Source: Elusimicrobiota bacterium
Lineage (GTDB): Bacteria; Elusimicrobiota; Elusimicrobia; 2-01-FULL-59-12
Assembly (NCBI GenBank): GCA_041660185.1
Contig: JBAZWU010000011.1
Location: forward strand, 28,883-92,882
DNA length: 64,000 bases
Direction: 5' to 3'
A program made the translations under genes and the position numbers. Numbering within the stretch: the stretch's first letter is position 1; each line of letters begins with the position of its first letter. Of the stretch, positions 8,129-59,306 are shown piece after piece. Under the pieces are notes generated by a model. The model was not told the origin of the DNA. It searched no databases and worked only from the letters and a program-made list of their open reading frames with translations.

Positions 8129-8364
8129 GTAATTATTTTACCTATTTGCTGATGGCGAAGGGGGTGTCCCAGCGCAAAACGGTCAAGTTTTTGCTGAATG
8201 AAACCACAGTCGTCATCCCCCGCGGTTGTTGGCGGGGGATCTCTCCGTCAATGATGGATCCTCCGCCAGTGGCTGCGGAGGATGACGACGTGAGTGACCG
8301 CGGGGATGACGTCAAGGGCGGCTTACGCATCGGATTATTTAGGTGAATGAAGTAAAATATAGAT

Positions 8365-12449: not shown

Positions 12450-12816
12450 GGGGCTGAATAGGTTCGACAGGATTGGACGGAGCGGACAGTCGCAGGCCCT
12501 GGTTGGTCGAATCCAGGTAAAAAGTCGGCCAAAACACAACTGGCGAATACGCCCTCGCTGCCTAAACAACAGCGTGCCCTCGGCTTTTAAGCTGAGGCGC
12601 TCTCTCCGGCCCCGCCTGTGGGCGGAGTCAGAGCGTCATCATGCAGGCTAGGATCGGTTCTCTCGCCCTGAAGAGCTGATCCGAAATCCAGCAGGGCTAG
12701 TTCTTACGAAGGCCGTTCTCAGCCTGAGTAAGGTCGAAACCTAAAAGGGGACTAAGCTTGTAGGGACCCCGCTAGGCTAATCTTGGACCCGGGTGCAATT
12801 CCCGGCAGCTCCACCA
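12450..12816 (+). ncRNA. ssrA: tmRNA (SsrA), about 367 nt, predicted tag peptide GQNTTGEYALAA
   Basis: The 5' end 'GGGGCUGAAUAGGUUCGACAGG' pairs with the 3' end '...GGACCCGGGUGCAAUUCCCGGCAGCUCCACCA' (a tRNA-Ala-like acceptor/T-arm with a G3:U pair). The internal ORF 'GUC GGC CAA AAC ACA ACU GGC GAA UAC GCC CUC GCU GCC UAA' (12527-12565) ends in the YALAA* degradation tag. Confidence 0.9.
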
Positions 12817-20565: not shown

Positions 20566-20639
20566 TGTGCCCAACTGGACTTGAACCAGTAACCTCAACC
20601 TTCGCAGGGTTGCGCTCTATCCAATTGAGCTATGGGCAC
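20566..20639 (-). tRNA. tRNA-Arg (anticodon GCG as read; A20 identity element present; 3' CCA not encoded)
   Basis: The minus-strand sequence is GTGCCCATAGCTCAATTGGATAGAGCGCAACCCTGCGAAGGTTGAGGTTACTGGTTCAAGTCCAGTTGGGCACA. It folds with a 7-bp acceptor stem, a GCTC/GAGC D-stem, a CAACC/GGTTG anticodon stem with loop CUGCGAA, and a 5-bp T-stem. Confidence 0.8.
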
Positions 20640-26756: not shown

Positions 26757-26886
26757 CCCTCACCCCAACCCTCTCCCTCAGCAGGGGGAGGGAGTTTCAG
26801 ATTCTCTGCACGTTTCCTTTCCCTCTCCCTGTTGAGGGAGAGGGAAAGCCGGACGGCCGCAGGCCGGACAGGCGCGGGTGAGGGCA
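26757..26886. repeat. ~130-bp composite palindromic repeat (P/G/E-coding 'GEG' element), copy A, intergenic between convergent genes
   Basis: 'ccctcaccccaaccctctccctcagcagggggagggag' ... 'ccctctccctgttgagggagaggg' ... 'gggtgaggg'. It contains nested hairpins with 10-bp perfect stems. The family recurs at 49348, 58021, 58447 and 59307. Confidence 0.8.
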
Positions 26887-31386: not shown

Positions 31387-31442
31387 CCTAAAACCCTCTT
31401 TTGAAGATCGCACATATCGTCACCCCCGAGCACCACCCTAGC

Positions 31443-31568
31443 CGTCATCCCCGGCAGCCACTGGCCGGGGATCCAAACAGTCTTGACGTCAACGTATAGA
31501 TTCCCCGCCAGTACCCGCGGGGAATGACGAATGATTGGCAGCGCCAGAATCCGCGGGGGATGACGTTT
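31443..31568. repeat. tandem double-hairpin repeat, family 'CGTCATTCCCCGCGG...CCGCGGGGAATGACG', copy 1 (intergenic)
   Basis: 'gtcatccccggcagccactggccggggatcc' ... 'ttccccgccagtacccgcggggaatgacg' ... 'ccgcgggggatgacg'. Related copies are at 33432-33490 and 44037-44127. Confidence 0.75.
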
Positions 31569-33424: not shown

Positions 33425-33431
33425 AAGAACC

Positions 33432-33490
33432 CCGTCATCCTCCGCGACCGCTGGCGGAGGATTCCCCGCCAGAACCCGCGGGGAATGACG
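33432..33490. repeat. double-hairpin repeat (CGTCATTCCCCGCGG family), copy 2, between carbamoyltransferase stop and GT-fusion start
   Basis: 'ccgtcatcctccgcgaccgctggcggaggattccccgccagaacccgcggggaatgacg'. Confidence 0.75.
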
Positions 33491-35272: not shown

Positions 35273-36937
35273 TTGGTATATTTTTACCTGATGATTTGGA
35301 CAAAAAATAGAGTCGGATTTCTCTTTGTCTTTCTGGGTTTACTTCAAGCCTGGGCGAACCGGTTTTACATGAATTCCGACGGGATCTCCTACATCGAGAT
35401 CGCGCAGGCGTACGCCCGGGGTCAGTGGCAGCAAGCCTTCAACACCTATTGGAGTCCGCTGTACTCCTGGATTCTCGCCATTGTGTTCCGGCTCTTTAAG
35501 CCTTCTTTGTTCTGGGAGTTCCCCCTGGTCCATCTGGTTAATTTTCTGATCTACCTGTTTACGCTGGCCGCTTTCAGCTATCTGCTGAAGCAATTTCTCA
35601 GGTGGCAAGGAGTACAAGAACCTTCCTTGCGCCGGGTTTGGATCTGGCTGGGATATTCACTCTTTCTCTGGTGCGCCTTAAGCGCCGTCAGTCTCTATTT
35701 GGTCAGCCCGGATCTGCTGACGGCCGGCATCATTTTCCTGGCCGCGGGACTCTGGATTCGTCTTCAGCAAGGCGAGACCACCTGGACCCTCTTCGGTTTA
35801 TGGGGTGCGGTTTTAGGGATCGGGTATCTGGCCAAAACCTTCATGTTCATTTTCGGTTTCTTGTGGATCGTCGCCGGCGTCGGCTGGGCGGTCTGGAAAC
35901 GGAATTCCAACATCAACCGCTACAGCGCTGCTTTGGCAGGATTTCTCTTCATCGCCGTTCCTTTCGTCGGAGCGATCTCCAAAGCCAAAGGTCAATGGAC
36001 TCTGGGAGAAGCCGCCCCGATCAATTACGCCTTTCATGTTAACCGGGCGCCAATTCTCCCTTTCTGGCGCGGGGATTTTCCGCCGGGCAGCAAGGGAACG
36101 CATCCCCCCCGCTTGATCATGTCCATGCCGCGCGTTTATGCGTACGACCGGGACATCCCCGCTAGTTATCCCATCTGGTATGACCCCTCTTACTGGATGG
36201 AGGGACTGCGGCCCCGCTATGGCCTGATCGATCACTGGCGCTCGCTGCGGATGCGTTTCAACGACGATACCCACCTGCTTTTGTACTCGCAAGGGAGTCT
36301 ATGGGCGGGAGCTCTGATTCTTCTCTGGGGTGCTAAAAGACGGAAACCCGGAGCGATGCTTCTGCTTCCGGGCCTTTTGGGAGTGGCGATCTTTGCGATA
36401 GTTCTGGTGGAACCCCGTTATATCGGTCCCTTTGTCGTTTTAATCTGGTTCGGCGTATTTTCGGGGATGGAAGTCCCGACGGAAGAGATGGCCCGGAAGT
36501 GGTTCGGCTGCGTGGTATGGGCGATGCTTCTCAACCCGCTGGTCTATGTAGGATATGAAACCGCTAACGCGCTCCAAAGAACGGTACGGCAGACGCTGAC
36601 CTTTCCGCACACCCGGAATCATGCGTACTGGCAGGTCGCGCAAGACCTGCACCAGTTGGGACTCAGGGAACACGACCGCGTGGCCTGCATGTTTGAAAAA
36701 GGTTATGGACAATATTGGGCACATCTCGGGGCGTTTCGCTTGGTGGCAGAAATTCCTTTTCCGGACGATGTGTCGCAAGCCCAACCGCCGCTCATGGCCG
36801 CCATCGCCGATGTCCTGCGGCAGGAAGGGATCCGCGCCATCGTGGCATGGCCTCACGCGGTTTCCCCCCACGTTTTAAAAAACCTTGGCGGTTGGCAAGA
36901 GCTGAAAGACGCCCCTTTTGTCGTTTATCTCCTATGA
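35273..36937 (+). CDS. GT-C fold membrane glycosyltransferase (ArnT/PMT-like), paralogue 1
   Basis: Polytopic N-region with 'NSDGISYIEIAQAYARGQWQQAFNTYWSPLYSW' (D-x-x-Y-x-x-A ... W-x-x-P motif of PMT/ArnT family) and a soluble C-domain. About 40% identical by eye to the next gene. Confidence 0.6.
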   Translation: MVYFYLMIWTKNRVGFLFVFLGLLQAWANRFYMNSDGISYIEIAQAYARGQWQQAFNTYWSPLYSWILAIVFRLFKPSLFWEFPLVHLVNFLIYLFTLAAFSYLLKQFLRWQGVQEPSLRRVWIWLGYSLFLWCALSAVSLYLVSPDLLTAGIIFLAAGLWIRLQQGETTWTLFGLWGAVLGIGYLAKTFMFIFGFLWIVAGVGWAVWKRNSNINRYSAALAGFLFIAVPFVGAISKAKGQWTLGEAAPINYAFHVNRAPILPFWRGDFPPGSKGTHPPRLIMSMPRVYAYDRDIPASYPIWYDPSYWMEGLRPRYGLIDHWRSLRMRFNDDTHLLLYSQGSLWAGALILLWGAKRRKPGAMLLLPGLLGVAIFAIVLVEPRYIGPFVVLIWFGVFSGMEVPTEEMARKWFGCVVWAMLLNPLVYVGYETANALQRTVRQTLTFPHTRNHAYWQVAQDLHQLGLREHDRVACMFEKGYGQYWAHLGAFRLVAEIPFPDDVSQAQPPLMAAIADVLRQEGIRAIVAWPHAVSPHVLKNLGGWQELKDAPFVVYLL

Positions 36938-38592
36938 GACTGAATTTTAGACGAACCTTCTGGCTTCTGGCTGTTCCCCTTGGATTTTTCCAAGCCTGGG
37001 CCCTCCGGTTTAACATGGACCCCGACGGGATTTCTTATCTCGAAGTGGCTCAAGCCTATGCGCAAGGCCGATGGAACGACGCCTTCAACGCCTACTGGAG
37101 CCCGCTCTTTTCATGGATCCTGGCGGTCTTCCTGAAAGTGGTACATCCTTCCTCTTACTGGGAATTTCCGCTGATTCACCTGATCATTTTTTTCATTTAC
37201 CTGTTTGTGCTGGCAAGCTTTGACGACCTGCTCCGGCAGTTCCTGGCCTGGCACAAGACCCCCGCCGCCGATGCGGATCCCGGCTGGCACACGCTTCCGG
37301 AAGCGCTCTGGGAATGGATCGGGTACGCTCTGATTCTCTGGTGCACACTCTGGGCCCTGGGCCTGGCGCAAGCCACACCCAACCTGCTGGTGAGCGGATT
37401 TATTTTTCTGTCGGTCGGAATCGCTTTCCGTCTGCAGCGGGAAAATGTCTCCGGATGGCTTTATGTTTTATCGGGAGTCGTCCTTGGATTCGCTTATTTT
37501 GCCAAAGCCTATGCGTTCCTTTTCGGAGTGGCCTGGATCCTGGGGATGACGGGCGCGGCCTTTCTTCAGCGGCGGCCTATTCGACGTTATGCGCTGACCT
37601 TGGCTGTTTTTATTATCGTAACCGGCCCTTATATAGGCCTGTTGTCCCGGACGAAAAAACACTGGACCTTTGGCGACGCTTCATCCATCAATTACGCGGT
37701 CCATGTCAATCAAGCCCTTCCCTTGCCTTTCTGGACCGGGGATTTCCCGCCTGGCAGCGTGGCCAAACGCCTGGTTCGACAAATCATGAACCATCCGACG
37801 ATTTATGAATTTGATCGAGACATTCCTGCCAGTTTTCCCCTCTGGTATGACCCGGCTTACTGGATGGACGGCTTACGGCCCCGTTTTTCTGTCCGGGATC
37901 ACCTGAGCGCCTGGCGCGGGCATCTGAATGAATACACCCGGCTTCTTTTTTATGAACAGATCAGTCTCTGGACCGGAACGTTGATTCTCTTCGGGATGGC
38001 CCGGCGCTGGAAGCGGCTGATCAAACACGGGTGGCCGCTGCTGGTGCCGGCGCTGATCGGCTTTGGCATCTTCGCTCCGGTGCTGATGGCCAACAGCTAC
38101 ATCGCGCCGTTTATTGTTCTCGGCTGGCTGGGGATTCTGGCTGGGTTGGAATTTCCAACCGATGGGGTCACTTCGCGATGGTTGAGGCGCGTCGCGGGCG
38201 TTATGATCGCTGTCCCGCTTCTGCAAGTCGGTTACCGAATCGTCTCAGTTGTGCCGACGCGTTCAACCCCGTTCCACTGGCAGGTGGCGCAGAAGCTGCA
38301 CGAGTTAGGCCTGCGTCCGGGGGACCGGGTGGCGAGCTTTGACACCGGCTTTGGACAGTTCTGGGCGCATATCGGCGGATTTCGCCTGATCGCTGAAATT
38401 ACCGTTCCTGAGGAAGTGACCCTTATTACTCCGTCGAAGATGACGGAAATCGTTGGGGTCTTACGGGCGAAGGGCATTCGCGCATTCGTGGGACGGCAGG
38501 AACTGATTCCAGAAGACAGCCTCGGCGGCTGGCAACAACTTCACAACACACCTTACGCCGTTTACCTGATCAACCCAACTGAGGGGACGTAG
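36934..38592 (+). CDS. GT-C fold membrane glycosyltransferase (ArnT/PMT-like), paralogue 2 (ATGA overlap with paralogue 1)
   Basis: 'MRLNFRRTFWLLAVPLGFFQAWALRFNMDPDGISYLEVAQAYAQGRWNDAFNAYWSPLFSW' parallels paralogue 1. Its ATG at 36934 overlaps the TGA of the upstream gene. Confidence 0.6.
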   Translation: MRLNFRRTFWLLAVPLGFFQAWALRFNMDPDGISYLEVAQAYAQGRWNDAFNAYWSPLFSWILAVFLKVVHPSSYWEFPLIHLIIFFIYLFVLASFDDLLRQFLAWHKTPAADADPGWHTLPEALWEWIGYALILWCTLWALGLAQATPNLLVSGFIFLSVGIAFRLQRENVSGWLYVLSGVVLGFAYFAKAYAFLFGVAWILGMTGAAFLQRRPIRRYALTLAVFIIVTGPYIGLLSRTKKHWTFGDASSINYAVHVNQALPLPFWTGDFPPGSVAKRLVRQIMNHPTIYEFDRDIPASFPLWYDPAYWMDGLRPRFSVRDHLSAWRGHLNEYTRLLFYEQISLWTGTLILFGMARRWKRLIKHGWPLLVPALIGFGIFAPVLMANSYIAPFIVLGWLGILAGLEFPTDGVTSRWLRRVAGVMIAVPLLQVGYRIVSVVPTRSTPFHWQVAQKLHELGLRPGDRVASFDTGFGQFWAHIGGFRLIAEITVPEEVTLITPSKMTEIVGVLRAKGIRAFVGRQELIPEDSLGGWQQLHNTPYAVYLINPTEGT

Positions 38593-38658
38593 TTGCAACT
38601 TTGCATCGACTACGCCTCTCGTTGGCAAAGACAGCTGCAAAGTTGCAACTACGTCCCC
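38583..38658. repeat. REP pair (BIME-like): 23-bp 'GGGGACGTAGTTGCAACTTTGCA' and its inverted copy separated by 30 bp
   Basis: Forward copy 38583-38605, inverted copy 38636-38658. They sit between convergent gene ends. Confidence 0.85.
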
Positions 38659-39158
38659 TCCCCCAGACCCATCAGATCGACCATCGCTTGTTCGACGAGG
38701 CGGATCATGGGTGAGGGTTCTGTGCTGGGGCTTGGCGGCGGAGGATTATGGCTGGCTTTTCGGATCGCTTCCCGTAAATCAAAAATCTCATAGGCGGGGA
38801 TGACCCGCCCTTCATCGGCCAGTGCGCGGATCAACTGAAGCTGATGGTTATTCACATGCTCGCCATAGCGAGCCAGGCGCGGCACCACAATGGGGACTTT
38901 ACCGAGTGAGATCGCCTGCAGAAGCGTCCCGCAGCCGCCGTGACAGATGATGAGCCGGGCCTCCTTCAGGCACTCGAGAAAACGGTCCGCGGAAAGAAAA
39001 GCTTCGGTCCGGCTGTGACGGGGTTGGAAGTTTTCATTATGGCCCGTCTGCATAAAGACCGGCTCGCCTTGAAAGAGCGGGGTACCGGCCAGCGCGTCGA
39101 CCGCTTCCAACAGCCGGGAGAACCCCTGAGTCGCGTTGCCGACGGTCACAAAGATCAT
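38649..39158 (-). CDS. Alg13-like glycosyltransferase subunit (GT28 C-terminal domain; PssE-like)
   Basis: 'MIFVTVGNATQGFSRLLEAVDAL...LIICHGGCGTLLQAISLGKVPIVVPR...HQLQLIRALADEG' matches the Alg13/MurG-C pattern. The start is placed at MIFVTVG; an earlier in-frame Met at ~39260 is possible. Confidence 0.7.
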   Translation of the reverse strand: MIFVTVGNATQGFSRLLEAVDALAGTPLFQGEPVFMQTGHNENFQPRHSRTEAFLSADRFLECLKEARLIICHGGCGTLLQAISLGKVPIVVPRLARYGEHVNNHQLQLIRALADEGRVIPAYEIFDLREAIRKASHNPPPPSPSTEPSPMIRLVEQAMVDLMGLGEGT

Positions 39159-41443: not shown

Positions 41444-42921
41444 GGGTTGGCCCTCCGTTCGCGCACCCAGCGCAGCGCCACAATGTAAATGATGATGCTC
41501 TGGAGAATGGAACCAAAGGATGGCGCCAACGCCGTCTCGATATTAATCAGGCTGGTGAGAATAACGGCAAAGATGGCGATGCCGCCTTCGCCGGCGTTCT
41601 CATGATTAAACAGACGTTCCATCGTGGCATAGACCATACCCAGAATCCCCATGATGAACAGCACCCCCAGCGCTCCAAAATTGACGTAGCTTTCAACCAG
41701 GTGCGGCATGCCGATGGAGGTTGTCCCGATGCTGGCCGGGTCCTGTAAGCCGTAGGCCACACCAAAAAATTCGTTCGCCACCTGGGCATTCGGCTTCTTG
41801 GGCCAGATGGCCCGCGGGATTAAGGTGTAAATAAAATAGTCGTACGTTTTCCCTAATTGGAACGGAACATGGCGCGGCGTCATGGTCAACACATGGCCGA
41901 ACAGATGAATACAGTCCGTCCGCTGGATGGAACTTCGGGTACTCGATTGAACGCTCCGGCGGCCGTGCAGCAGGTCATTCCAACTGGTCACAGACAGAGT
42001 CGACCAGATCGCGATGCGGTCAAAGATACTGGTACTGGCCATCCCCTGTTTCCAGACCATATTCCGGTATTCCCCTTTTATCGGCTGGATAAAAGCGAAG
42101 AAAAGGACACCGATCATCGCAAAGTGCCAGGGGAACTTCTTCCGTGCCATCCAGTTAACAGACGTCACGATCAGGATCGGATCCAATAGATTTCGCACGT
42201 TGCCCATCGCCATTCCCAGCATGACCAGGATGGCGAAGATGACGACATAAGCCAGCCGCCCCCACCACCGCAGATTTCCCTTCAGAAAGTACCAGTACAA
42301 CAGGCCAAAACCGAGCAGCGACAATTTAATCATGAGACCGTACACGGCAAACAGGCGCGGCGGAATGACGACGCGTTCAGTCAGGCCAAGCCACAAGAGC
42401 GCGCTGCCGGTGATCCCCATCACGGTGGCGAGCGGCTGCGCCCGGACCGCCTCAAGTGTCAGGCGTACCTTAGGGACCAGAAGATTCAGTATGGAAAAAC
42501 GGAAGAACCAGAAACCGCACTCCAGCGCGATGATTCCCGCAAGCGTCAGCCGCAACGCCCTCTCGGTATATCGCGCGGGGACGATCAGGATCCCCCCTCC
42601 CCAGGAGGATTCGACCAAGGGTTCAGCATAGAAGGCGGGCAGGGCGTAACTGGCCGCATAAACCAGACAGATAATCGGGAACACCGGCACGCCCGGCTGA
42701 CGTTTGGCCAGATGAATGACGCTCGGCAAAAGACAAACCAGCACGACCAGATAGGCCAACCCCTGCTGCACGATCGAGACGTCCGGCCGCGTCACGTAAC
42801 GGAGGATCGGGATTAAAATCAAACTCAACAGAAAATAGCCGAACCAGACCTGGAACGCCCGGCCCTCGATGGGCCGCTGGGGCAGGCGGCTAAAACGGAT
42901 GTTGGTCACGGCATTATTCAC
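41440..42921 (-). CDS. polytopic membrane protein, O-antigen/EPS polymerase-like (Wzy-type) candidate
   Basis: 493 aa with more than 10 TM segments and a larger loop. It sits in the glycan locus between a GT and an amidotransferase. Assigned by context only. Confidence 0.45.
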   Translation of the reverse strand: MNNAVTNIRFSRLPQRPIEGRAFQVWFGYFLLSLILIPILRYVTRPDVSIVQQGLAYLVVLVCLLPSVIHLAKRQPGVPVFPIICLVYAASYALPAFYAEPLVESSWGGGILIVPARYTERALRLTLAGIIALECGFWFFRFSILNLLVPKVRLTLEAVRAQPLATVMGITGSALLWLGLTERVVIPPRLFAVYGLMIKLSLLGFGLLYWYFLKGNLRWWGRLAYVVIFAILVMLGMAMGNVRNLLDPILIVTSVNWMARKKFPWHFAMIGVLFFAFIQPIKGEYRNMVWKQGMASTSIFDRIAIWSTLSVTSWNDLLHGRRSVQSSTRSSIQRTDCIHLFGHVLTMTPRHVPFQLGKTYDYFIYTLIPRAIWPKKPNAQVANEFFGVAYGLQDPASIGTTSIGMPHLVESYVNFGALGVLFIMGILGMVYATMERLFNHENAGEGGIAIFAVILTSLINIETALAPSFGSILQSIIIYIVALRWVRERRANP

Positions 42922-45900
42922 AACACTTCTTTCCTTCCGTCCAGAATGGTTTCAAGACGCTGACGAAAACGCTCAACGGAAAACGTTTGTTCCAAGTGTT
43001 CCCGGCCCGCTTCTCCGAACCGGCTGGCCAGTGCCGCGTCTTTCAACAACAACACCAGAGCCGCGACCAGGGACGATCCCTGGCGGGGTTCCACGAGCAG
43101 CCCGGTCACATCATGAACAACCACTTCCGGAACACCACCGGCCCGCGCGCCCACACAGGGCTTGCCATGCGACATCGCTTCCAGAAAAACGATCCCGAAT
43201 CCTTCGCCTTCGCTCGGCAGGGCGAACACATCGCAGGCCTCGTAATAGGATGGAAGATCGGCTCCGGATACACGGCCGGCAAATATAACCTGTTGATTAA
43301 CTCCACAGCGCCGGGCCAAGGCTTCCAGACGGGAACGGTCAGGACCGTCGCCGACCACCACCAGAAAAGCCGCTGGGACGTCCCGCCGGACATCCGAAAG
43401 ACGTTCGATCATCCAGTCGATATTTTTGTAATGTTCCGCATCCGACAGCCGGGAAACAGTCAGAATCATCGGGCCCTCGGGAAGAGACAACTCCCGCCGT
43501 GTTTTCATGACCACGCGGTTGTTAAAAGCAGGATCGATCGTATCCGGAAAAACATCCCCCTGCTCCGGCGATAGCCCATTGCGCGAGAGCATCTGATCGA
43601 GCGTATACCGGCTGACCGCCAGAATCCGTGACATCTTTCGCAAACCCAGACGGCGCAAAAGCGGCAGCTTCTGCCAGACATCTATTCCATGAGCGATCGC
43701 ATAGGACTGGCTGTTCTTTTTTTGCATCCAGACGAGCGGCGAGAAATGCGCATGGCCAAAGAACGCACCGTCCGCTTTTCGTAAGGAACAAACCGCCTGT
43801 TTGAAGAACCTGAGCCGGCTTCCTCCAAAAGAACGCACGTCGGCACCGGCCAGCCGCCGGGCGGTCGGGGCATCATGCAAGACCAGAAACTGCAGCGCCC
43901 ATCCTCGCTCTTTGGCGATGGCGCGCAAGGCCGCCACCAAAGCTCGATTGAAGGTCGTAATACCGCCCAGCGCTCCAAAGAGATCCGTCAGCAAGACAAC
44001 CCATTGCGGTTTGGGGACAAATCGAAAGGTCCTGAAGTCGTCATTCCCCGCGGCCACTGGCGGGGAATCCAAAATTGTCGTACGGCATTGCTGGATCCCC
44101 GGCCAGTTACCGCCGGGGATGACGTCATTTGATCCGCCATAAAATCGAGCCACAATCACCGTGGCCCAGGCGCGGGACCAGTGCAGGCGGCCGGCGCGAA
44201 CCCCGGCCCAGATGGCTTGCACCGCTTTCCGTTCCAGCGGCGTATGCTCCAGCGCCATGGCTTCGAAATCATCCGCTTTTTGACGGAACCACTCGCCGAA
44301 AGGAAACGTGAAACCTTGCTTCGGGCGATCCCACACCTCCCGCGGAAACTCCGGGCCCATCGCTTCGACCAGAAGCCCTTTGGACTGGCTGGACCGCCGG
44401 ACGTCCGGCGGCAGGCGCAGGATTTCCTCAACCAGACGATGGTCTAGAAACGGCACACGCAGCTCCAGCGAATGGGCCATGCTCATCACATCGCTGTCTT
44501 TCAGCAACTGGTTCTGGAGATAGTGATCGAACTCCAAAAGTCGCAGGCGTTCTTCCTCCGGGAAGCGCTTGAGGACGTCGACCCCTTCAGGAACCCAGCG
44601 CGCGCGTTCGGTATCGCGTACGCTTACACCGAGAAGCCCGGCGATGCGTTCCGGCGGAAAAAGAGCTCGGAAAAGACGATACGGAGAGGCCGGATCCATA
44701 TCCCTCAGACACCAGAGCTTGTCCGCAACACCGGGATGGGACGGACGGCTCAGGGATTCCACCAGGCTCAGCAAAGGACCCCGCACACCCGGCGGCACGC
44801 ACGAAATCCCACGCACAGCAGCGCCGATCCACCGGGCGTGATGGAGATGGCGGTATCCCGAAAACAGCTCGTCCCCCCCCAGTCCGGAGAGGACCACTTT
44901 GAGTCCGGCCTCGTGCGCGGCTTTGGACACGACATAGGTATTGATGCCGTCGAGTGTGGGCTGGTCCATCGCCGCCAGCATCCGGGGCAGTTCGTCTTCA
45001 AACGCCTGCCGGCGCACCCGGATTTCCCGGTGGTCTGTGCCGTACTGGCGCGCCACCAGGCGCGCGTAACGCCCCTCATCGTAGGCGGGTTCATCGAAGA
45101 GGACCGACAACGTCGTGACATGCCCCGGCTGAAGACGGCTGGCCAGCGCCGTCAGTGAAGAGGAATCAATGCCTCCGCTGAGGAAAATTCCAAGCGGGAC
45201 ATCGCTGATCAAGTGCCCTTGAACCGCGTCCAGCAGCTGCCGGCGTGTTTCTTCCACGGCTTCCAGACGGGTGACGGGCCGGACGGGTTGATCCAAAACT
45301 CGAGCCAGGTCCCAGTAGTTTGTGGGTTCCACCGGACCGCGGCCCAACGACAGATAATGTCCGGCTGGAAGACTCCAGACCTTTTGAACGGTGGTTAGAG
45401 GAGCAGGGACCGATCCAAGCTCCAAAAATCGCAGGAGGCTCTCGGCGTTTAGCCGGTCGGGGATAAGCCCGCTGGCTTGCATGGCCCGCACCTCGGAGGC
45501 AAAAAGAATTTTCTCGTGGTCTTGATAGTAGTAAAGCGGTTTAATGCCGAAACGGTCACGGGCCAGAAACAGGCGCGGGCCGGAGCGAGCCGACAGATCC
45601 AAGAGCGCGAAAGCGAACATTCCCCGCAGGTGTTCCAGAAGCCCTTCCATCCCCCACGCTTCATATCCGTGCACCAGGACCTCGGTATCGGTGCGCGAAA
45701 CGAAACGATGGCCCGCGGTTTCCAGTTCCCGGCGCAGATCCTGAAAATTGTAGATTTCCCCGTTGAAAACAACCTGAACGGTCTGGTCTTCATTGGCCAT
45801 CGGTTGGCGGCCGGCGGAGGAGGTGTCCAGAATGGAGAGACGGCGGTGGCCCAGGAGCGCCTGCGGATGGCGGAATAACCCCTGATCGTCAGGGCCGCGG

Positions 45901-45992
45901 TGAAGCTGTGCATCCAGCATCCGCTCGACGCCCTGAATCTCCGGCGGCGCTACAACTCCCTGGGTGCGAAAGAGGCCAGCGATGCCGCACAT
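42918..45992 (-). CDS. fusion protein: asparagine synthetase (glutamine-hydrolysing, AsnB/WbpS-like amidotransferase) + GT4 glycosyltransferase
   Basis: The N-terminus 'MCGIAGLFRTQGV' is a class-II GATase Cys2. 'FLSGGIDSS' is a PP-loop. The C-terminal ~380 aa is 'RFVPKPQWVVLLTDLFGALGGITTF...EGFGIVFLEAMSHGKPCVGARAGGVPEVV' (GT4). The inter-domain linker is encoded by a hairpin repeat. Confidence 0.8.
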   Translation of the reverse strand: MCGIAGLFRTQGVVAPPEIQGVERMLDAQLHRGPDDQGLFRHPQALLGHRRLSILDTSSAGRQPMANEDQTVQVVFNGEIYNFQDLRRELETAGHRFVSRTDTEVLVHGYEAWGMEGLLEHLRGMFAFALLDLSARSGPRLFLARDRFGIKPLYYYQDHEKILFASEVRAMQASGLIPDRLNAESLLRFLELGSVPAPLTTVQKVWSLPAGHYLSLGRGPVEPTNYWDLARVLDQPVRPVTRLEAVEETRRQLLDAVQGHLISDVPLGIFLSGGIDSSSLTALASRLQPGHVTTLSVLFDEPAYDEGRYARLVARQYGTDHREIRVRRQAFEDELPRMLAAMDQPTLDGINTYVVSKAAHEAGLKVVLSGLGGDELFSGYRHLHHARWIGAAVRGISCVPPGVRGPLLSLVESLSRPSHPGVADKLWCLRDMDPASPYRLFRALFPPERIAGLLGVSVRDTERARWVPEGVDVLKRFPEEERLRLLEFDHYLQNQLLKDSDVMSMAHSLELRVPFLDHRLVEEILRLPPDVRRSSQSKGLLVEAMGPEFPREVWDRPKQGFTFPFGEWFRQKADDFEAMALEHTPLERKAVQAIWAGVRAGRLHWSRAWATVIVARFYGGSNDVIPGGNWPGIQQCRTTILDSPPVAAGNDDFRTFRFVPKPQWVVLLTDLFGALGGITTFNRALVAALRAIAKERGWALQFLVLHDAPTARRLAGADVRSFGGSRLRFFKQAVCSLRKADGAFFGHAHFSPLVWMQKKNSQSYAIAHGIDVWQKLPLLRRLGLRKMSRILAVSRYTLDQMLSRNGLSPEQGDVFPDTIDPAFNNRVVMKTRRELSLPEGPMILTVSRLSDAEHYKNIDWMIERLSDVRRDVPAAFLVVVGDGPDRSRLEALARRCGVNQQVIFAGRVSGADLPSYYEACDVFALPSEGEGFGIVFLEAMSHGKPCVGARAGGVPEVVVHDVTGLLVEPRQGSSLVAALVLLLKDAALASRFGEAGREHLEQTFSVERFRQRLETILDGRKEVL
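44037..44127. repeat. double-hairpin repeat (CGTCATTCCCCGCGG family), copy 3, located in-frame inside the AsnB-GT4 fusion as the interdomain linker
   Basis: 'gtcattccccgcggccactggcggggaatcc...ccccggccagttaccgccggggatgacg'. It is translated (minus strand) as '...NDVIPGGNWPGIQQCRTTILDSPPVAAGNDD'. Confidence 0.75.
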
Positions 45993-47902: not shown

Positions 47903-49234
47903 CTATTTCCTCGTCGCTAAGATCACGGTGGCCACCGTCATGAGGATCATGGTAATGGGCGACAACGCGTTGGCAAAGGCGCTGGCGGCCCAGATGGAGC
48001 GCTGCGGCACGTAGACGACGTCTCCCGGTTGAAGCTTGATATTGCCGTCCGAACGGTTTCGCAGCACGCTATTAAAACGGACAACCGTCATGGTCTGATG
48101 GGGAGGCTCTCCCCGGATAATGGTGATGCGCCGCAGATTGGCGCTATCCTGGAAACCATGGCACAGCGAAACCAGGTCCAGCATGCGCATGTCGTGGATA
48201 TAGTCATAGGAACCGGGTCTCATGACTTGCCCGAAGATCGTAATCCCCGTAGTGCCCCGCGGCACTTCGATGATATCGCCGGCTTCCAGAAGGACATCTT
48301 TACTCGTATCGCCGCTCACCAGAGCTTCTTCAGCGTTCACCAGAATCAGCCGCCGCTCAGCCCCGCTGCGCCGCAGGAGACGGATCTGCCGTTTATTGGC
48401 GCTGGGAAGAAAACCGCCGGCCAGCGCGATCAAGTCGAGCAGCCTCATATTCGGTCGTAACGCGTAGGAGTTCGGCGAACCGACCTGGCCTGAAACACCC
48501 ACCTGCTTATTGCTGGATTGTTTAAGAAAGATGTCCACCTTCGGCGAACTGACATAGCGGGACAACTCCTGCGTGATCTTCCGGCTTAACTCATCCGTGG
48601 ACAGGCCGGCCGCCGGGATCGCGCCGATCAGAGGGATGGAGATTTTGCCGTTTTGGTCCACGACCAGATCACGCGACAGCTCTTCGGCCGGACTGACCGC
48701 AAAATACAGGCTGTCTCCGGACTGCACGAGCTGATCGGACTTGATCAGAGCGGCCGGATCCGGCTTGGCTTGAGAAGGCCGACTGTCTCGCGGAACCAGA
48801 TTGCCTTTTTTCTCCACTTCCACCGTTATCTCACGGCCGCTGCGAACCTGCGAAGGCCAGTCCGCGGCCAGGTCGATCACCACCTGCGAAATCGGCGAGG
48901 GTTTGTCCGTCACAAGACTGGCCTGAAGGGAGGCGACCGCGCCTTTGCCCGGCTGCATGCCGGCGAGCTTTTCCGACAACGCGGTGTCGTAGATGACCAG
49001 AAAAACTTTTGGGAGATTCCGGCCTTTCGGGTCTTTCATGGTGACCGGCTGGCAGGAACCCAGACGGTCGCCGCGGATATGAACCACGGTGCTTCGTTCG
49101 CTGTCGGTAATCTCGATCTGGTCAATCATCCCGGCGCGGGAGCGTGCCTGCAGCTCCGGAACCGGCAACAGATCGCACAACAACAAAACGGTCATTGTAA
49201 CCGTGATTGATTTTTTGGCGGTAATCCAATTCAT
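47903..49234 (-). CDS. polysaccharide export protein (Wza/KpsD-like; Poly_export + SLBB domains)
   Basis: Signal peptide. Repeated 'V.V.G.V..PG...L..G.RLLDLIALAGGF' SLBB-type units are present. Confidence 0.75.
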   Translation of the reverse strand: MNWITAKKSITVTMTVLLLCDLLPVPELQARSRAGMIDQIEITDSERSTVVHIRGDRLGSCQPVTMKDPKGRNLPKVFLVIYDTALSEKLAGMQPGKGAVASLQASLVTDKPSPISQVVIDLAADWPSQVRSGREITVEVEKKGNLVPRDSRPSQAKPDPAALIKSDQLVQSGDSLYFAVSPAEELSRDLVVDQNGKISIPLIGAIPAAGLSTDELSRKITQELSRYVSSPKVDIFLKQSSNKQVGVSGQVGSPNSYALRPNMRLLDLIALAGGFLPSANKRQIRLLRRSGAERRLILVNAEEALVSGDTSKDVLLEAGDIIEVPRGTTGITIFGQVMRPGSYDYIHDMRMLDLVSLCHGFQDSANLRRITIIRGEPPHQTMTVVRFNSVLRNRSDGNIKLQPGDVVYVPQRSIWAASAFANALSPITMILMTVATVILATRK

Positions 49235-49347: not shown

Positions 49348-49436
49348 CCCTCACCCCTACCCTCCCCCTCCGCAGGGGGAGGGAGCACAACCTATCTTCC
49401 CCCTCTCCCTCAGGAGGGAGAGGGCTGGGGTGAGGG
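49348..49436. repeat. P/G/E-coding palindromic 'GEG' repeat, copy B (intergenic, upstream of wza-like gene)
   Basis: 'ccctcacccctaccctccccctccgcagggggagggag...ccccctctccctcaggagggagagggctggggtgaggg'. Confidence 0.8.
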
Positions 49437-49452: not shown

Positions 49453-49926
49453 TTACGGTTTTTGACTATTAGCAGGCGCGCCAAGGACCTTCATCGGGAT
49501 GACTTTCCCCTTGGGGGGCGATTCATCCGGCTGGCTTTTAGTAATAGGAAGGGGGCCATCATCAAAATATCCATCAAACCGGAAGGTGAAACAGGCCAGC
49601 GTCCCGAGCGCCACACCAAGCCCATCGGCCATCAGATCATTGACACTGGGATTGGAATCCACCAAGAACTCTTTGGCGACTCCGACTCCTAATACGCCGG
49701 TGGCGGCGACCCAGGTCGCCGGTAGTCGAGGGACATTCATCAGTCGCAGGGTTTGCGTCCCGATAAACGTCCCCCCTGCGCCCAGCCAAAAATGTTCCTG
49801 GGAATCCGTCCGGGTGAAAACAAATTTTTTCTCCACATACTCAACAGCCCCGGCATTCGTTCCCCAGAATAAGCACACCGCCAGAAAGCAGGACGGCGCG
49901 CCGCGCCGAACGTTCATCAGCGCCAC
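49453..49926 (-). CDS. hypothetical secreted protein
   Basis: 157 aa with a signal peptide. It is Gly/aromatic-rich. No family recognised. Confidence 0.35.
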   Translation of the reverse strand: MALMNVRRGAPSCFLAVCLFWGTNAGAVEYVEKKFVFTRTDSQEHFWLGAGGTFIGTQTLRLMNVPRLPATWVAATGVLGVGVAKEFLVDSNPSVNDLMADGLGVALGTLACFTFRFDGYFDDGPLPITKSQPDESPPKGKVIPMKVLGAPANSQKP

Positions 49927-52209: not shown

Positions 52210-53367
52210 TTGATGTCTTTGGCTATGAAATCCCCTCACAAACCGGCGTTCGAGCTTCAACTCCTATGCAAACTCCTGGCTTTGCGGCCAAGCCAGGAGG
52301 AATGTCTTTCAGACCTCCGCGCACCAGGTTTTTGCTGGGATCTATTCCTTCAGTTGGCGGAGTACCACGGGGTGATCGGATTTCTCTACGAGGCCCTGAC
52401 CGAAACCGGCCTGGCCCGGGAAGTTCCACCCAAGCTCCTGGAAGCGCTGCGGCATTCCACTCTGGTTCTCCTGGAAGAGCACCTGCAGCACAGGAGCGCG
52501 ATCCGGAAAACGCTGGAAACCCTGAACGCGGCCGGGTTGGAATTTATCGTTATTAAAGGGTGGTCACACGCCGAATCACTTCATGGGAACCCCTGCGCCC
52601 GTCCCATCACGGACCTGGACCTTCTCGTACACGACACGAAGGCGGCTCAAGCCCTGCTGAAACAACAGAGACTGCCGGACCCATCGATCGTAGACTGGCA
52701 TATCTATCCCACAAACACGTCGGATCTGCCGTCCCGCATGCGGTGCCTGCAGCTCGACATCCAGACGCTCTGGGCGGATTCGCGCCTCGCCACGATCACA
52801 GACACGCCGGCGCGCGTTCTTTCTCCGGCTGACCAGGTCATCGCCCTGGTGATCGACTTCACGATTTCGCATGGGTTCGGGAGGCTACTCCTTTTAAAGG
52901 AGATCCTGCTTCTGGCTGAAAAAGTCGGATGGGATGCGCTGGTGAAGAGGGCTCAACTATTCCAGGCTGACATTTTGCTGTACTTGACCCTCCGCATGGG
53001 AGAGGAACTTCTGCGATTCCCGGTTCCCCTCGATATTTTAAAAATCTTAGGGACTCGCTTAAGGCAAGAAGAACACTGGCTGGAAAAACGGCTGATTCAA
53101 AATCCGCTTTTTACCCCGGCCCGGTATTTCTGTATTCCGATTCTCCTGCCTTCCTGGGCCGATCGCCTGAGTTTTGCCAAAGAACTGCTCTGGCCTCCCC
53201 CCTATTGGTTCGAGCTCCGCAGCGAAAAACCGTCTCTCTGGCGCCACCTCATCCATGACGCGACGCTTATCGGCAAGGCATGCGCCATTTTATGGAACGT
53301 CAGGGGACGTAGTTGCAACTTTGCAAAAGGTGCCGGAAAAAATCCTTTTTTCCCCAAGACCGGGTAA
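52210..53367 (+). CDS. uncharacterised nucleotidyltransferase family protein (PF14907/NTP_transf_5-like), RiPP-cluster accessory type
   Basis: 'LNAAGLEFIVIKGWSHAESLHGNPCARPITDLDLLVHDTKAAQALLKQQ' matches the IKG...R..DIDLLV...D signature of this family. Confidence 0.65.
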   Translation: MMSLAMKSPHKPAFELQLLCKLLALRPSQEECLSDLRAPGFCWDLFLQLAEYHGVIGFLYEALTETGLAREVPPKLLEALRHSTLVLLEEHLQHRSAIRKTLETLNAAGLEFIVIKGWSHAESLHGNPCARPITDLDLLVHDTKAAQALLKQQRLPDPSIVDWHIYPTNTSDLPSRMRCLQLDIQTLWADSRLATITDTPARVLSPADQVIALVIDFTISHGFGRLLLLKEILLLAEKVGWDALVKRAQLFQADILLYLTLRMGEELLRFPVPLDILKILGTRLRQEEHWLEKRLIQNPLFTPARYFCIPILLPSWADRLSFAKELLWPPPYWFELRSEKPSLWRHLIHDATLIGKACAILWNVRGRSCNFAKGAGKNPFFPKTG

Positions 53368-53423
53368 AACAAGAAATATAGGCCATTTCCTGTCTCGTTG
53401 TGCAAAGTTGCAACTACGTCCCC
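53303..53423. repeat. REP pair: forward 23-bp REP (53303-53325) and inverted copy (53401-53423) with 75-bp spacer
   Basis: Exact matches to GGGGACGTAGTTGCAACTTTGCA and its reverse complement. They sit between the nucleotidyltransferase and ABC ATPase genes. Confidence 0.85.
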
Positions 53424-53446
53424 TGACGTTTTATATACTCAAACGT

Positions 53447-54190
53447 GTGACTTGTTCCATCGACGTACGGGGTGTTTCGAAATCGTTTTTCCCGCGGCTC
53501 TCTTTATTAAAACCCTGGCAGCCGAGGCCCCCCGTCCGCGCGCTCAATCACGTGAACCTCCGGGTGGAAACAGGAACGGTTTTCGCCCTGCTGGGCCCGA
53601 ATGGTTCCGGCAAAACGACCCTCCTCAAAATCATCAGCACGCTTCTGATGCCGGATGCCGGGACGCTTCGCGTGCTGGGTCACGTCCTGCCGGGGCAGGA
53701 GGAACGCGTCAAAACGCGAATCAGTTTCGCCATGGGAGACGAGCGAAGTTTCTACTGGCGCCTGACCGCCCGGCAGAACTTGATGTTTTTTGCTGCGCTC
53801 TATGATCTTTCCCCCCGGCAATCCGAACAAAAGATCGCTGAACTGGGTGACGTGTTCAGCCTGAAAGACTACCTTGACCGCCCCTACGAAGAACTCTCAT
53901 CCGGGATCCGGCAGCGCCTGGCGATCGCGCGATCCTTTCTGAACGACGCGGCCCTCCTGCTGGCCGATGAACCCACCCGCAGCCTCGATGCGGCCGCCAG
54001 AAACGCGCTTCACGGACTTCTTCAAAAACTCGTGCGGGAACACGGAAAAACGATTCTCTTCACAACGCATAATTTTGAGGAAGCCCGACGGGTGGCGGAC
54101 ACGGTAGGGATTTTGAATCAGGGCCGGCTTTGTTACTCCGGAAAATGGAAAGACGGCCTGGAGAGTTACCTCAATGCCCCCGCTTCGTAA
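53447..54190 (+). CDS. ABC transporter ATP-binding protein
   Basis: 'LLGPNGSGKTTLLKII' is Walker A, 'LSSGIRQRLAIARSF' the signature, 'LLLADEPTRSLD' Walker B. A GTG start at 53447 is chosen downstream of the REP; the listed ORF starts earlier inside repeat DNA. Confidence 0.85.
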   Translation: MTCSIDVRGVSKSFFPRLSLLKPWQPRPPVRALNHVNLRVETGTVFALLGPNGSGKTTLLKIISTLLMPDAGTLRVLGHVLPGQEERVKTRISFAMGDERSFYWRLTARQNLMFFAALYDLSPRQSEQKIAELGDVFSLKDYLDRPYEELSSGIRQRLAIARSFLNDAALLLADEPTRSLDAAARNALHGLLQKLVREHGKTILFTTHNFEEARRVADTVGILNQGRLCYSGKWKDGLESYLNAPAS

Positions 54191-54989
54191 ACTCTGGGCT
54201 TTTTCCCTCCGGGACTGGCAGCTCGCCCAGACGTATCGCTTTACTTTTTTGTTTGAGGTGGTCCGCACGCTGATCTTGCTGCTCTCGTTTTATTTCATCG
54301 GCAAATTGGTCCGGAGCAGCGGTGTTCACCCATCCCTGGCTGTATACGGAGGCGATTACTTTCGCTTCGTCCTTTTGGGCATCGTGTTCAGCGGCTTCAT
54401 GTCCACCGCTCTGGGCAGCGTGCGGCAGACGATTGAATTTGAACGGGGGCATGGGACATTGGAAGCCATTTTACTGACCCCCACTCCCCTGATCACGCTC
54501 GTGATCAACAAAACCCTGTGGGATCTCGGCATGGTCACAGCCAAGGCCGTCCTGTATCTCCTGGCAGGAGTTTACTTTTTTCGAGTGGATCTCTCGCACG
54601 TTTATTGGACCAGCACGCTGGTGGCCATCGCTTTGACAGTCAGCACCTTTTTTGGTTTAGGGCTGATCTCCGCCGGTATTCATTTACTCATCCGGGAAGA
54701 CAGCCCTTTGGACCTGATTTTGGAAGGAGCCTCGCGCTTCCTGGGAGGCGTTTATTTCCCGGTGGCGGTTCTTCCCGCGCCTCTTCTCGCGCTGTCCCGC
54801 TGGGTGCCGCTCACCTATGCGCTCGACGCGATCCGAAAATCCATGATTCTTGGAGCTTCGCTTCAAACCATCCGGATGGAACTACTGGTGCTGGCAGGGT
54901 GTTCGATCGTTCTGGTTCCGATCGGCGTGATCTGTTTTCAGAGCGCTTTCAAGACCGCCCGACGCAGGGGAATTCTCAGCTTCGAGTAG
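54174..54989 (+). CDS. ABC-2 type transporter permease
   Basis: 271 aa, 6 TM. Overlaps the ATPase stop. The ABC-2 family topology is typical. Confidence 0.75.
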   Translation: MPPLRKLWAFSLRDWQLAQTYRFTFLFEVVRTLILLLSFYFIGKLVRSSGVHPSLAVYGGDYFRFVLLGIVFSGFMSTALGSVRQTIEFERGHGTLEAILLTPTPLITLVINKTLWDLGMVTAKAVLYLLAGVYFFRVDLSHVYWTSTLVAIALTVSTFFGLGLISAGIHLLIREDSPLDLILEGASRFLGGVYFPVAVLPAPLLALSRWVPLTYALDAIRKSMILGASLQTIRMELLVLAGCSIVLVPIGVICFQSAFKTARRRGILSFE

Positions 54990-55745
54990 GGTTTTACAAA
55001 GAAAGGCCATCGGCGCTGAAGGTTCCCCAGCCTGCTGGAAACCCAGGGACCGGTAAAGTCGGAGGGCAGCTTGATTATCCGATTCCACCGTTAAACAAAG
55101 TTCTCTGACCCCTTGTTGGCGTGCCGTCCGTATCAGCTCCCCTAACAACAAAGTCGCGATTCCGCCGCCGCGGACCCAAGCGCGGACAAGCAGGTCTTTG
55201 ATGTTTTCCTTTTGATTCGGCTTGACGACGAGAAAAACATAACCGGCTTTCCAAGAACCGATAAAGGCCTGAAAAACAAAGGCGCCCTCTTCTTCCATCC
55301 GATTAATCCGGACCCGCGAAGCCAAATAAACCCTGAACAACACACGGTATAAATGGAAAGACTGGACCCAGGACAAAACCCGGATTCCCGCCATTTTCAC
55401 TTGTCGCTTCATCCAGGAAGGCCCGTATCGAATGAACAGAAAAAGGAAATACCGTCTCCGAAGATCTTTTTCAAGGAAAATTCGGCTTCCCCGTTTGACC
55501 ATTTCCAAGCGACCGATCAATTGATCTTCGCGGATCCATTCGATCGCTAGCGGAAGCTCATCTCCTGCTACTCCGAAATAATTTGGCCCAGCCGACAATC
55601 GCCTGATGCACCTCAACCGGTGAGCCACCGGGTTATCGTGTTCCGTCTGGCGATAAAGCAGGATGTCTCCAATTTTGAGGGTGGTTGATGATGAGAAGGC
55701 CCGGACAAAAAGCTCATCGCCCGGGCGAAGGAAGGGCTGCATACT
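54882..55745 (-). CDS. fusion: S24/S26-type (signal-peptidase/LexA-like) serine peptidase domain + GNAT N-acetyltransferase domain
   Basis: The N-region 'GGSMQPFLRPGDELFVRA...IGDILLYRQ' matches the GDSMxPTL..GD box of Ser-Lys dyad peptidases. The C-region 'VRGGGIATLLLGELIRTARQQGVRELCLTVESDNQAALRLYRSLGF' is the GNAT acetyl-CoA binding motif. The start is placed at the internal Met; the ORF's first residues are REP-encoded. Confidence 0.55.
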   Translation of the reverse strand, partial: SMQPFLRPGDELFVRAFSSSTTLKIGDILLYRQTEHDNPVAHRLRCIRRLSAGPNYFGVAGDELPLAIEWIREDQLIGRLEMVKRGSRIFLEKDLRRRYFLFLFIRYGPSWMKRQVKMAGIRVLSWVQSFHLYRVLFRVYLASRVRINRMEEEGAFVFQAFIGSWKAGYVFLVVKPNQKENIKDLLVRAWVRGGGIATLLLGELIRTARQQGVRELCLTVESDNQAALRLYRSLGFQQAGEPSAPMAFLCKTLLEAENSPASGGLESALKTDHADRNQNDRTPCQHQ

Positions 55746-55785
55746 GCCACCCTCGGCCCGGCAGAAAAACGAGCCGGGAGCACTA

Positions 55786-55863
55786 GGGGACGTAGTTGCA
55801 ACTTTGCATAAGGTATTCATATGACACAAGATACCTTTGATGCAAAGTTGCAACTACGTCCCC
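55786..55863. repeat. REP pair: forward REP (55786-55808) and inverted copy (55841-55863) around a palindromic 32-bp spacer
   Basis: Exact 23-bp matches. The spacer 'taaggtattcatatgacacaagatacctttga' is itself an inverted repeat. Confidence 0.85.
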
Positions 55864-55887
55864 TGGCGGTCTTTCGCGACATCTCCG

Positions 55888-56091
55888 TCAGGACGTGGTG
55901 GCGCCGGAATCCCGGGCGGTTGTCACGCTTGCCCGCCGGCAACCGTTGGAGGTCCGACATCCCTTTGTTCCTCTGACAGACAAGCTGGTGCCGCTTCGTG
56001 TGCATGTGCTGAGAATGGCCTGCTCCCGGCGGAGCACAACTTGGGTGATTTGCGGGGACTGATACGGCTTTTTTTCAGTTACAGTCGTCAT
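55888..56091 (-). CDS. candidate RiPP precursor peptide (67 aa: leader MTTVTEKKPYQSPQITQVVLRREQAIL; Cys/Ser/Thr/Arg-rich core)
   Basis: The ATG starts immediately after the TAA of the upstream radical SAM gene. A strong SD 'AGAGGGAGAG' lies 5-14 nt upstream. My translation gives MTTVTEKKPYQSPQITQ... as listed. The core has 3 Cys and 18 Ser/Thr. Confidence 0.5.
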   Translation of the reverse strand: MTTVTEKKPYQSPQITQVVLRREQAILSTCTRSGTSLSVRGTKGCRTSNGCRRASVTTARDSGATTS

Positions 56092-59274: not shown

Positions 59275-59306
59275 TTCCTAAACCCTCTAACGAACACATC
59301 TACGGA

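Follow-up and report, generated by a model that had tools for sequence, protein, structure and literature searches.

The closest described relative of the sequences analysed here is the intrastrand triplex motif TMECO, defined as CCCTCNCCC-N3-6-GGGNGAGGG-N3-GGGNGAGGG (Holder et al. 2015, PMC4666352) and earlier named BoxC and PIT element; that paper credits the earlier work to Bergler and to Hoyne/Maher. Using the strict motif, 3610 copies were counted in 262 proteobacterial genomes. E. coli K-12 carries 23 of them, always intergenic and including five inverted pairs, and the motif is associated there with local sequence variability (PMC4666352). No transposase is known for E. coli BoxC, the motif was found not to be associated with phages, and tests of PIT elements in E. 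coli detected neither promoter nor terminator activity, nor a stable triplex in vivo (PMC4666352).

Similar sequences have been reported in other settings. HPG1 and HPG2 of E. coli are G-quadruplex/hairpin/duplex switch motifs near 3' UTRs (Kaplan et al. 2016, PMC5100583), and these loci appear to be TMECO loci under another name, judging from their numbers (16+7 = 23 vs 23) and their G-runs (GGGAGAGGG-N3-GGGTGAGGG). The genome of Enterobacter sp. 638 contains 100 copies of a core hairpin CCCTCTCCCxx(x)GGGAGAGGG, frequently duplicated or triplicated and located at gene 3' ends (PMC2869309). Rickettsia palindromic elements, of ~100-150 bp, insert in frame into unrelated genes and leave the host protein intact (PMC10969869).

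We analysed a window of 64 kb from an Elusimicrobiota MAG, and all copy counts given for it cover this window. A sequence-only reading had described five copies of a composite palindromic repeat in the window and called the family novel. Judged by their sequence, the five are members of the BoxC/PIT/TMECO repeat class, so the family is a known one and not new.

Five elements share a nested palindromic architecture

All five copies located by the sequence-only reading were present; the end it gave for copy A (26886) lies 2 nt beyond ours (26884). The elements and the parts of copy A are as follows.

26757-26884, plus strand: copy A, three-hairpin version, left end CCCTCACCCC
26769-26792: hairpin 1 of copy A
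26821-26844: hairpin 2 of copy A, separated from hairpin 1 by a 28-nt spacer
26855-26865: small third hairpin of copy A, GGCCGCAGGCC
26876-26884: right end of copy A, GGGTGAGGG
49348-49436, plus strand: copy B, minimal two-unit element with two exact TMECO motifs on opposite strands
58020-58121 (core 58022-58121), plus strand: copy C, in a radical-SAM ORF of the minus strand
58447-58572 (core 58448-58572), plus strand: copy D, three-hairpin version, in the radical-SAM/SPASM ORF
59308-59397, minus strand: copy E, three-hairpin version, inverted, with a degenerate first hairpin CCTTCCCTCT...AGGGGGAAGG

Each copy has outer inverted ends, CCCTCACCCC...GGGGTGAGGG, which enclose two hairpins with 10-bp stems, CCCTCYCCCT-4 nt-AGGGGGAGGG (hairpin 1) and CCCTCTCCCT-4 nt-AGGGAGAGGG (hairpin 2), separated by a variable spacer of 7-28 nt. 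The pattern CCCTCYCCCT-N3-6-AGGGRGAGGG occurred nine times in the window, every time within the five elements, and not once in 100 dinucleotide-preserving shuffles. The nested hairpins within bracketing inverted ends that had been described earlier are real. A and D carry a small third hairpin before the right end (GGCCGCAGGCC and GACCGCTAGGTC, respectively), whose stem shows one compensatory change, GGCC...GGCC in A vs GACC...GGTC in D. The extended tail previously reported as common to A and D is real. Alignment of the reverse complement of E showed the same module at the opposite end of that copy, a feature missed before, indicating that E is inverted relative to A and D.

End to end, the elements measure 128 (A), 89 (B), 100 (C), 125 (D) and 90 nt (E), with boundaries uncertain by 1-2 nt; the idea that only the intragenic copies have lengths divisible by three was rejected. 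Mean column identity between copies was 61% with flanks included, the hairpin stems being 92-93% identical and the spacers diverged. B, C and D have the left hairpin CCCTCCCCC and the right hairpin CCCTCTCCC in common.

Folding of the single copies, which had been proposed as a check, gave predicted energies of -52 to -90 kcal/mol on both strands, far more stable than shuffles for every copy (z = -4.5 to -8.1). Hairpin 1 is in addition complementary to hairpin 2, and this extends to the loops (CAAC/GTTG); the minimum-energy structure is accordingly predicted to be a single long nested hairpin. All five elements carry canonical G4 motifs, and 6 of the 7 such motifs in the window fall within them.

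The elements resemble a MITE in having terminal inverted repeats, CCCTCACCCC/GGGGTGAGGG, at both ends. Target-site duplications, a further check suggested earlier, were found at none of the five copies, the flanks of which have no direct repeat in common (three-nt flanks: A, TTA/CAT; B, ATA/CAG; C, GCC/TCA; D, GGA/TTT; E, GAA/TTA). No Rfam family matched the elements at the gathering threshold, and the only Rfam matches in the window were a tmRNA gene (12450-12816, plus strand, 138.8 bits) and one tRNA gene (20566-20639, minus strand). The window-specific pattern CCCTCACCCCNACCCTCYCCCTCNNCAGGGGGAGGG had no match in the metagenome contigs scanned.

The elements match the published BoxC/PIT/TMECO definition

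The novelty claimed for the family did not survive comparison with the published TMECO definition (PMC4666352), which has five exact matches in the window and none in 100 shuffles.

26757-26792, minus strand: left half of copy A
49348-49383, minus strand: left half of copy B
49401-49436, plus strand: right half of copy B
58022-58057, minus strand: left half of copy C
58448-58483, minus strand: left half of copy D

A strict fit to the motif is seen at just five half-sites out of ten, which weighs against class membership. In the remaining five the second loop is longer or the stem is degenerate: the right half of A and of D contains the inserted third hairpin, while C deviates in its right half and E in both halves. 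The lldD-trmL spacer of E. coli K-12 contains an element with the same two-unit inverted layout as in the window, CCCTCACCC-TAA-CCCTCTCCC-TCA-GGGAGAGGG-59 nt-CCCTCGCCCC-TCC-GGGGAGAGGG-CCG-GGGTGAGGG, which begins 12 nt past the lldD stop.

Besides the exact pattern, the window elements share with the class their multi-copy, dispersed occurrence and their inverted pairs on opposite strands within ~100 bp. The lldD-trmL pair likewise has CCCTCACCC outside and the hairpin inside, and neither a transposase nor target-site duplications are known for the class. The window elements differ from the published ones in their host, Elusimicrobiota as opposed to the 262 proteobacterial genomes in which the 2015 survey reported the strict motif; in a third hairpin that may follow hairpin 2, before the right end; and in local density, which is much higher at 5 per 64 kb in the window against 23 per 4.6 Mb in E. 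coli K-12. Two of the five copies lie within an ORF and would be translated, whereas 23 of 23 copies in E. coli K-12 are intergenic, and this counts against the class assignment.

Like HPG1/HPG2, the window elements sit near gene 3' ends and hold most of the canonical G4 motifs of their surroundings, the G4 being predicted from the letters alone; intragenic copies are not described for HPG1/HPG2 (PMC5100583). The Enterobacter sp. 638 repeats have the same core hairpin as the window elements but were described only as presumed termination hairpins, and neither outer inverted ends nor intragenic copies were reported for them (PMC2869309). GC-rich short motifs common to several phyla could reflect convergence rather than homology.

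Elements lie directly past stop codons or inside genes

Copies A, B and E fall between genes, and all copies except A lie within a co-directional gene array. Copy A is placed between the convergent stops of a patatin/cNMP-domain gene (26740) and nfo (26905). Copy B lies 16 nt past the stop of a small ORF (49453-49926, minus strand) and 113 nt upstream of the start of a polysaccharide-export gene (47903-49234, minus strand), and copy E, which follows the TAA stop (59398-59400) of a radical-SAM/PqqD fusion gene without a gap, stops 33 nt short of the start codon (59274) of the radical-SAM gene that contains C and D. Three of the five copies are found 0-18 nt past stop codons, and three (C, D and E) lie in or adjoin a radical-SAM gene, as had been noted before. 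No element has a T-tail, terminator-like sites were absent at C, D and E, and the flanks of A and B, read directly, contain no T-run; a role as intrinsic (Rho-independent) terminators was rejected for this reason.

C, D and E lie among the genes of a minus-strand, peptide-maturase-like cluster at 52210-62621, in which all NCBIfam matches to named maturases were far below the cutoffs. The genes in and near it include the following.

52210-53367, plus strand: nucleotidyltransferase gene, near the cluster
54882-55853, minus strand: GNAT acetyltransferase
56092-57198, minus strand: radical-SAM/SPASM gene
57128-58012, minus strand: ScmC-family protein (PF27840)
58009-59274, minus strand: radical-SAM/SPASM maturase-like gene, 421 aa, holding D and C in frame
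59398-61611, minus strand: radical-SAM/SPASM gene with a C-terminal PqqD fusion

Elsewhere in the window, the large adjacent ORFs 35273-36937 and 36715-38592 (plus strand) are apparently tandem paralogues, their DNA being 71-74% identical between 35333-35478 and 36979-37124 and between 36116-36216 and 37783-37883.

Copies C and D lie in frame in a radical-SAM/SPASM gene

Copy D makes up exactly 42 codons of the 421-aa host gene, in frame and stop-free (residues 235-276, PSPAPVRPSGRPACPLPQQGEGGSPADFILPPPVEGEGWGEG). It is located in a length-variable linker, between the radical-SAM core and the conserved PPDDRLFRCGCG at the start of SPASM. Copy C is read through as a 34-residue C-terminal tail, TPSPSPSAGRGDTSAKNLTLPPPVEGEGRGEG, after which the ORF ends; its TGA and the ATG of the following gene overlap (ATGA). 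The net insert was a multiple of three in both cases, 126 nt for D and 102 nt for C if the latter spans 58020-58121. The Pro/Gly/Glu-rich peptide that had been read from coding frames holds for these two copies, in the frame of the radical-SAM gene. Translational bypassing of D was also considered and is superfluous because D is open and in frame.

A homologue search returned 653 hits, the best 120 of which were listed and the closest 13 aligned. With the exception of an identical Elusimicrobiota MAG protein, the best 120 of the 653 homologues were 340-402 aa long, and the nearest was 58% identical to the host protein. Neither the 42-aa insert nor the C-terminal tail was present in any of the 13 aligned closest homologues, and the columns invariant among the 14 aligned sequences were all kept in the host protein, including CxxxCxxC and the SPASM cysteines. 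AlphaFold gave a pLDDT of ~90 in the radical-SAM core; residues 235-289 and 387-421 scored below 50 and had no secondary structure, so in this model D and C look like tolerated disordered segments of the host protein. Removal of 58020-58121 would give ...ILTSS*, with the same stop and a homologue-like C-terminus. No empty-site allele was found, and the one observation that suggests mobility of the elements is their absence from homologues that are distant (<=58% identical). An independent Logan assembly (run SRR18595301) reproduced the window from 54032 to 58477 exactly, copy C included, and its contig breaks inside copy D.

The motif is distributed across phyla and in viral contigs

When one genome per GTDB species was scanned for two hairpins in a strict pattern, 22 loci were found, spread over about 8 phyla or classes, with hosts among Peribacteria (CPR), Fimbriimonas, Sphingomonas, Devosia, Polyangia, Thermomicrobiales and Chloroflexota and in another Elusimicrobia MAG. 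The outer CCCTCACCCC/GGGGTGAGGG ends were found in most of these loci, and the third hairpin of the window was also present in the other Elusimicrobia MAG. A scan of JGI metagenomes added 16 further loci. Among IMG/VR viral contigs, at least 120 stretches matched the published TMECO pattern, a number far above chance for 25 specified bases (a rough estimate that assumes uniform composition), and prophages with flanking host sequence may account for some of these contigs. The abundance in IMG/VR (loci L042-L121) contrasts with the statement that the E. coli motif is not associated with phages.

Among 51 adjacent hairpin pairs, 19 had loops of exact complementarity and others departed from it by one mismatch; identical loops, as in tandem arrays, were seen in a further 11. 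Loops differed between elements. These results indicate that inverted doublets and tandem arrays both exist. Direct tandem arrays of three or four units with identical loops were seen in some genomes, including Peribacteria, at the following loci.

L008, 3268-3395: tandem array
L019, 6129-6254: tandem array
L030, 14199-14348: tandem array
L035, 42-162: tandem array
L037, 12529-12678: tandem array

In-frame copies occur in other proteins

Copies in frame were also found in genes of other hosts. A Chloroflexota DUF5682 gene has a single Pfam match (E 1e-134) that spans its in-frame insert, and a Peribacteria Wzy_C gene reads through several copies. In a tandem-ABC protein, the copy lies in the linker between two ATPase domains; a PDB search with this protein gave single-domain alignments only, in which the linker insertion is not visible. 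Three related metagenome contigs carry an in-frame copy in the central region of HsdS, between the two target-recognition domains, and phage structural genes contain copies as well.

L033, 4861-6291, minus strand: HsdS gene with in-frame copy
L038, 668-2179, plus strand: HsdS gene with in-frame copy
L040, 331-1791, plus strand: HsdS gene with in-frame copy
L063, 4723-6795, minus strand: phage portal-MuF fusion with in-frame copy
L077, 6569-12574, plus strand: phage MuF_C protein of 2001 aa with three in-frame copies

The HsdS contigs are nearly identical in the element and its flanks and differ in the target-recognition domains on both sides, and the element may lie at a recombination joint for domain shuffling. 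The 42-44-aa insert peptides, which are short and low-complexity as queries, showed no shared words when searched, and an insert peptide had no hit at E<=0.001 among 1.8 billion representatives. Within the limited literature searched, no published description of in-frame BoxC-type copies was found.

Rickettsia palindromic elements offer a parallel, since there too a palindromic element in frame adds a peptide at a tolerant site. They have no sequence relationship to the window elements, most of which are intergenic, and they are confined to one genus, whereas BoxC-like elements occur in many phyla and in phages.

A RAYT-like gene and other repeat families in the window

REPs are short palindromic units arranged as inverted doublets, which form a longer hairpin, lie after genes and leave no target-site duplication; a GTAG tag is typical of them. 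REP and REPIN repeats have reportedly been linked to a RAYT transposase by Nunvar in 2010, Bertels and Rainey in 2011 and Ton-Hoang in 2012. The window contains a RAYT-like ORF of 342 aa, in which only residues ~11-136 match transposase (NCBIfam NF047646, 62.8 bits, E 3e-17; Pfam Y1_Tnp, 38.7 bits), flanked in inverted orientation by copies of a 24-bp repeat, GGGGACGTAGTTGCAACTTTGCA. It is the one transposase gene of the window, and together with these repeats it has the classic layout of a RAYT and its cognate REP.

61593-62621, minus strand: RAYT-like ORF
61595-61624: REP copy flanking the RAYT-like ORF
62665-62688: REP copy flanking the RAYT-like ORF, inverted relative to the other

This repeat is a different sequence from the five elements, in keeping with the earlier view of a dispersed, composite, MITE/REP-like family distinct from the short REP of the window. 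Nine copies of this 24-bp REP family, which contains GTAG, occur in the window, and several form inverted pairs 50-120 bp apart. Besides the two sites that flank the RAYT-like ORF, they lie at the following positions.

38582-38659: 24-bp REP family
53302-53424: 24-bp REP family
55785-55864: 24-bp REP family
61118-61147: 24-bp REP family, in frame within the radical-SAM/PqqD fusion ORF 59398-61611 (minus strand), reading ...CAKLQLRPLN...

With this last copy, a second repeat family would also be translated within the radical-SAM cluster. Inverted pairs of GTCATCCCCGSN8-10SCGGGGAT(C) make up a third palindromic family, at the following positions.

8203-8287: third palindromic family
31435-31565: third palindromic family
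33425-33490: third palindromic family
44031-44124: third palindromic family, within the 1024-aa ORF 42918-45992 (minus strand); this pair may be another in-frame intragenic repeat

Discussion

The best explanation of the five elements as a whole, to which we give a probability of about 0.75, is that they are interspersed palindromic repeats of the BoxC/PIT/TMECO class, selfish and tolerated either after stop codons or in frame. One unit would consist of CCCTCACCC, ~3 nt and a hairpin with a 9-10-bp stem (CCCTCNCCC-loop-GGGNGAGGG), and an element of two inverted units separated by a variable spacer, in some cases with one more small hairpin. Two inverted units make the whole element a nested palindrome with G-quadruplex- or triplex-prone G-runs on both strands. 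Such elements would be non-coding, non-autonomous and essentially selfish structured DNA, presumably copied as whole two-unit elements, as suggested by the CCCTCCCCC left and CCCTCTCCC right hairpins shared by B, C and D, and leaving no target-site duplication. Single-strand hairpin-dependent transposition and template switching are candidate mechanisms; the lack of target-site duplications, the hairpin ends and whole-element copying would be compatible with either. The elements would persist where they do little harm, for example in the short gap directly past a stop codon. An element there would add a very stable stem-loop to the transcript; any regulatory role of such a stem-loop at the RNA level is conjectural. 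Inside genes they would persist when the frame is kept, no stop is introduced and the site is a disordered linker or tail, and there the element would become a Pro/Gly/Glu-rich peptide, as with Rickettsia palindromic elements.

Stable stem-loops in such places might instead mean that the elements are selected cis-acting regulators, acting either as intercistronic RNA stem-loops that stabilise the message upstream or delay ribosomes at stops, or as G-quadruplex/hairpin switches in the DNA. The three copies 0-18 nt past stops, the co-directional array around B, C, D and E, the very stable stems predicted on both strands, and the conservation of stems over spacers together with the compensatory change in the third hairpin all agree with regulation, as do the G4-hairpin switch proposed for the E. 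coli motif (PMC5100583) and the 3'-end location and presumed termination role in Enterobacter sp. 638 (PMC2869309). We nevertheless consider selected regulation rather unlikely, because C, D and E have no T-tail or terminator-like site, PIT in E. coli lacks promoter, terminator and in-vivo triplex activity (PMC4666352), the neighbouring genes are functionally unrelated, and it is difficult to fit one regulatory role to copies that lie within coding sequence and within structural genes of phages. Still less probable is that the elements are REPINs mobilised in trans by the RAYT encoded at 61593-62621 (minus strand). Two inverted palindromic units that form one long hairpin, the location past genes and the lack of target-site duplications are indeed REPIN-like, and the RAYT-like gene is only 2.2 kb from copy E. 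However, the repeat that flanks it is GGGGACGTAGTTGCAACTTTGCA and not a BoxC-like unit; that repeat carries the GTAG tag, whereas GTAG and CGTC are both absent from the five copies; and the RAYT score of 62.8 is below the curated NCBIfam cutoff of 80. Moreover, a tblastn search of the other retrieved loci with the window RAYT yielded no homologue close to a BoxC-like element, no transposase is known for E. coli BoxC (PMC4666352), and the window elements are conserved across phyla whereas REPINs are usually lineage-specific. It is the different flanking repeat and the lack of a RAYT near other loci that place this model low and led us to reject the RAYT as the best explanation of mobilisation.

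Two further readings can be set aside almost entirely. The similarity might reflect a genuine coding module, a Pro/Gly/Glu-rich peptide domain repeated in several proteins, as C and D are open in one frame and have LPPPVEGEG[RW]GEG in common; but three copies (A, B and E) lie between genes, stops interrupt most frames when the copies are translated in all six, conservation tracks base-pairing and not codons, and the segment is missing from the 13 aligned closest homologues and predicted to be disordered. Equally improbable is an assembly artefact, with the copies arising as chimeric joins or duplicated k-mers. The Logan contig does break inside D, as assemblers do at repeats. Against this, the copies differ in spacer, loops and modules, C and its flanks were reproduced exactly by an independent assembly, the reading frames are kept across D and C, and the architecture is also found in genomes of isolates, among them E. 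coli K-12 and Sphingomonas. Since the copies differ and the independent assembly agrees, they are not assembly duplicates. The sequence-only reading had itself raised the prospect of assembly duplicates with no copies elsewhere, and this did not hold, the same architecture being found in many other genomes. Membership in the BoxC/PIT/TMECO class is our preferred reading.

For this class, the window brings no new family: publications since the 1990s have given it at least four names. What is newly added is another phylum and an extra hairpin module. The range of the motif is wider than the published proteobacterial and cyanobacterial one, as it includes Elusimicrobiota, Chloroflexota, CPR Peribacteria, Armatimonadota and viral contigs. 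This sharpens an old question, as a unit of ~36 nt is near-identical across phyla without a known enzyme. The in-gene copies are the sole unusual feature; together with the wide distribution they extend the literature and do not overturn it. With these copies, 'always intergenic' holds for E. coli only. Peptides such as LPPPVEGEGWGEG, if detected, would prove translation of the in-frame copies. Annotators should expect Pro/Gly/Glu-rich pseudo-linkers of BoxC origin in real proteins, and spurious small ORFs reading PSPxxGRG or GEGxGEG elsewhere.

A broader and more tentative suggestion, which we hold to be possible but doubtful, is that the BoxC class is a pan-bacterial, phage-borne counterpart of Rickettsia palindromic elements, a structured repeat with conservation reaching from E. 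coli to CPR bacteria, that has entered repeatedly in frame at domain junctions and provides disordered Pro/Gly/Glu-rich linkers and possibly recombination points. The radical-SAM-SPASM linker, the ABC-ABC linker, the central region of HsdS and the portal-MuF junction are examples of such sites. If this were true, the copying mechanism would be new, as no known transposase fits.
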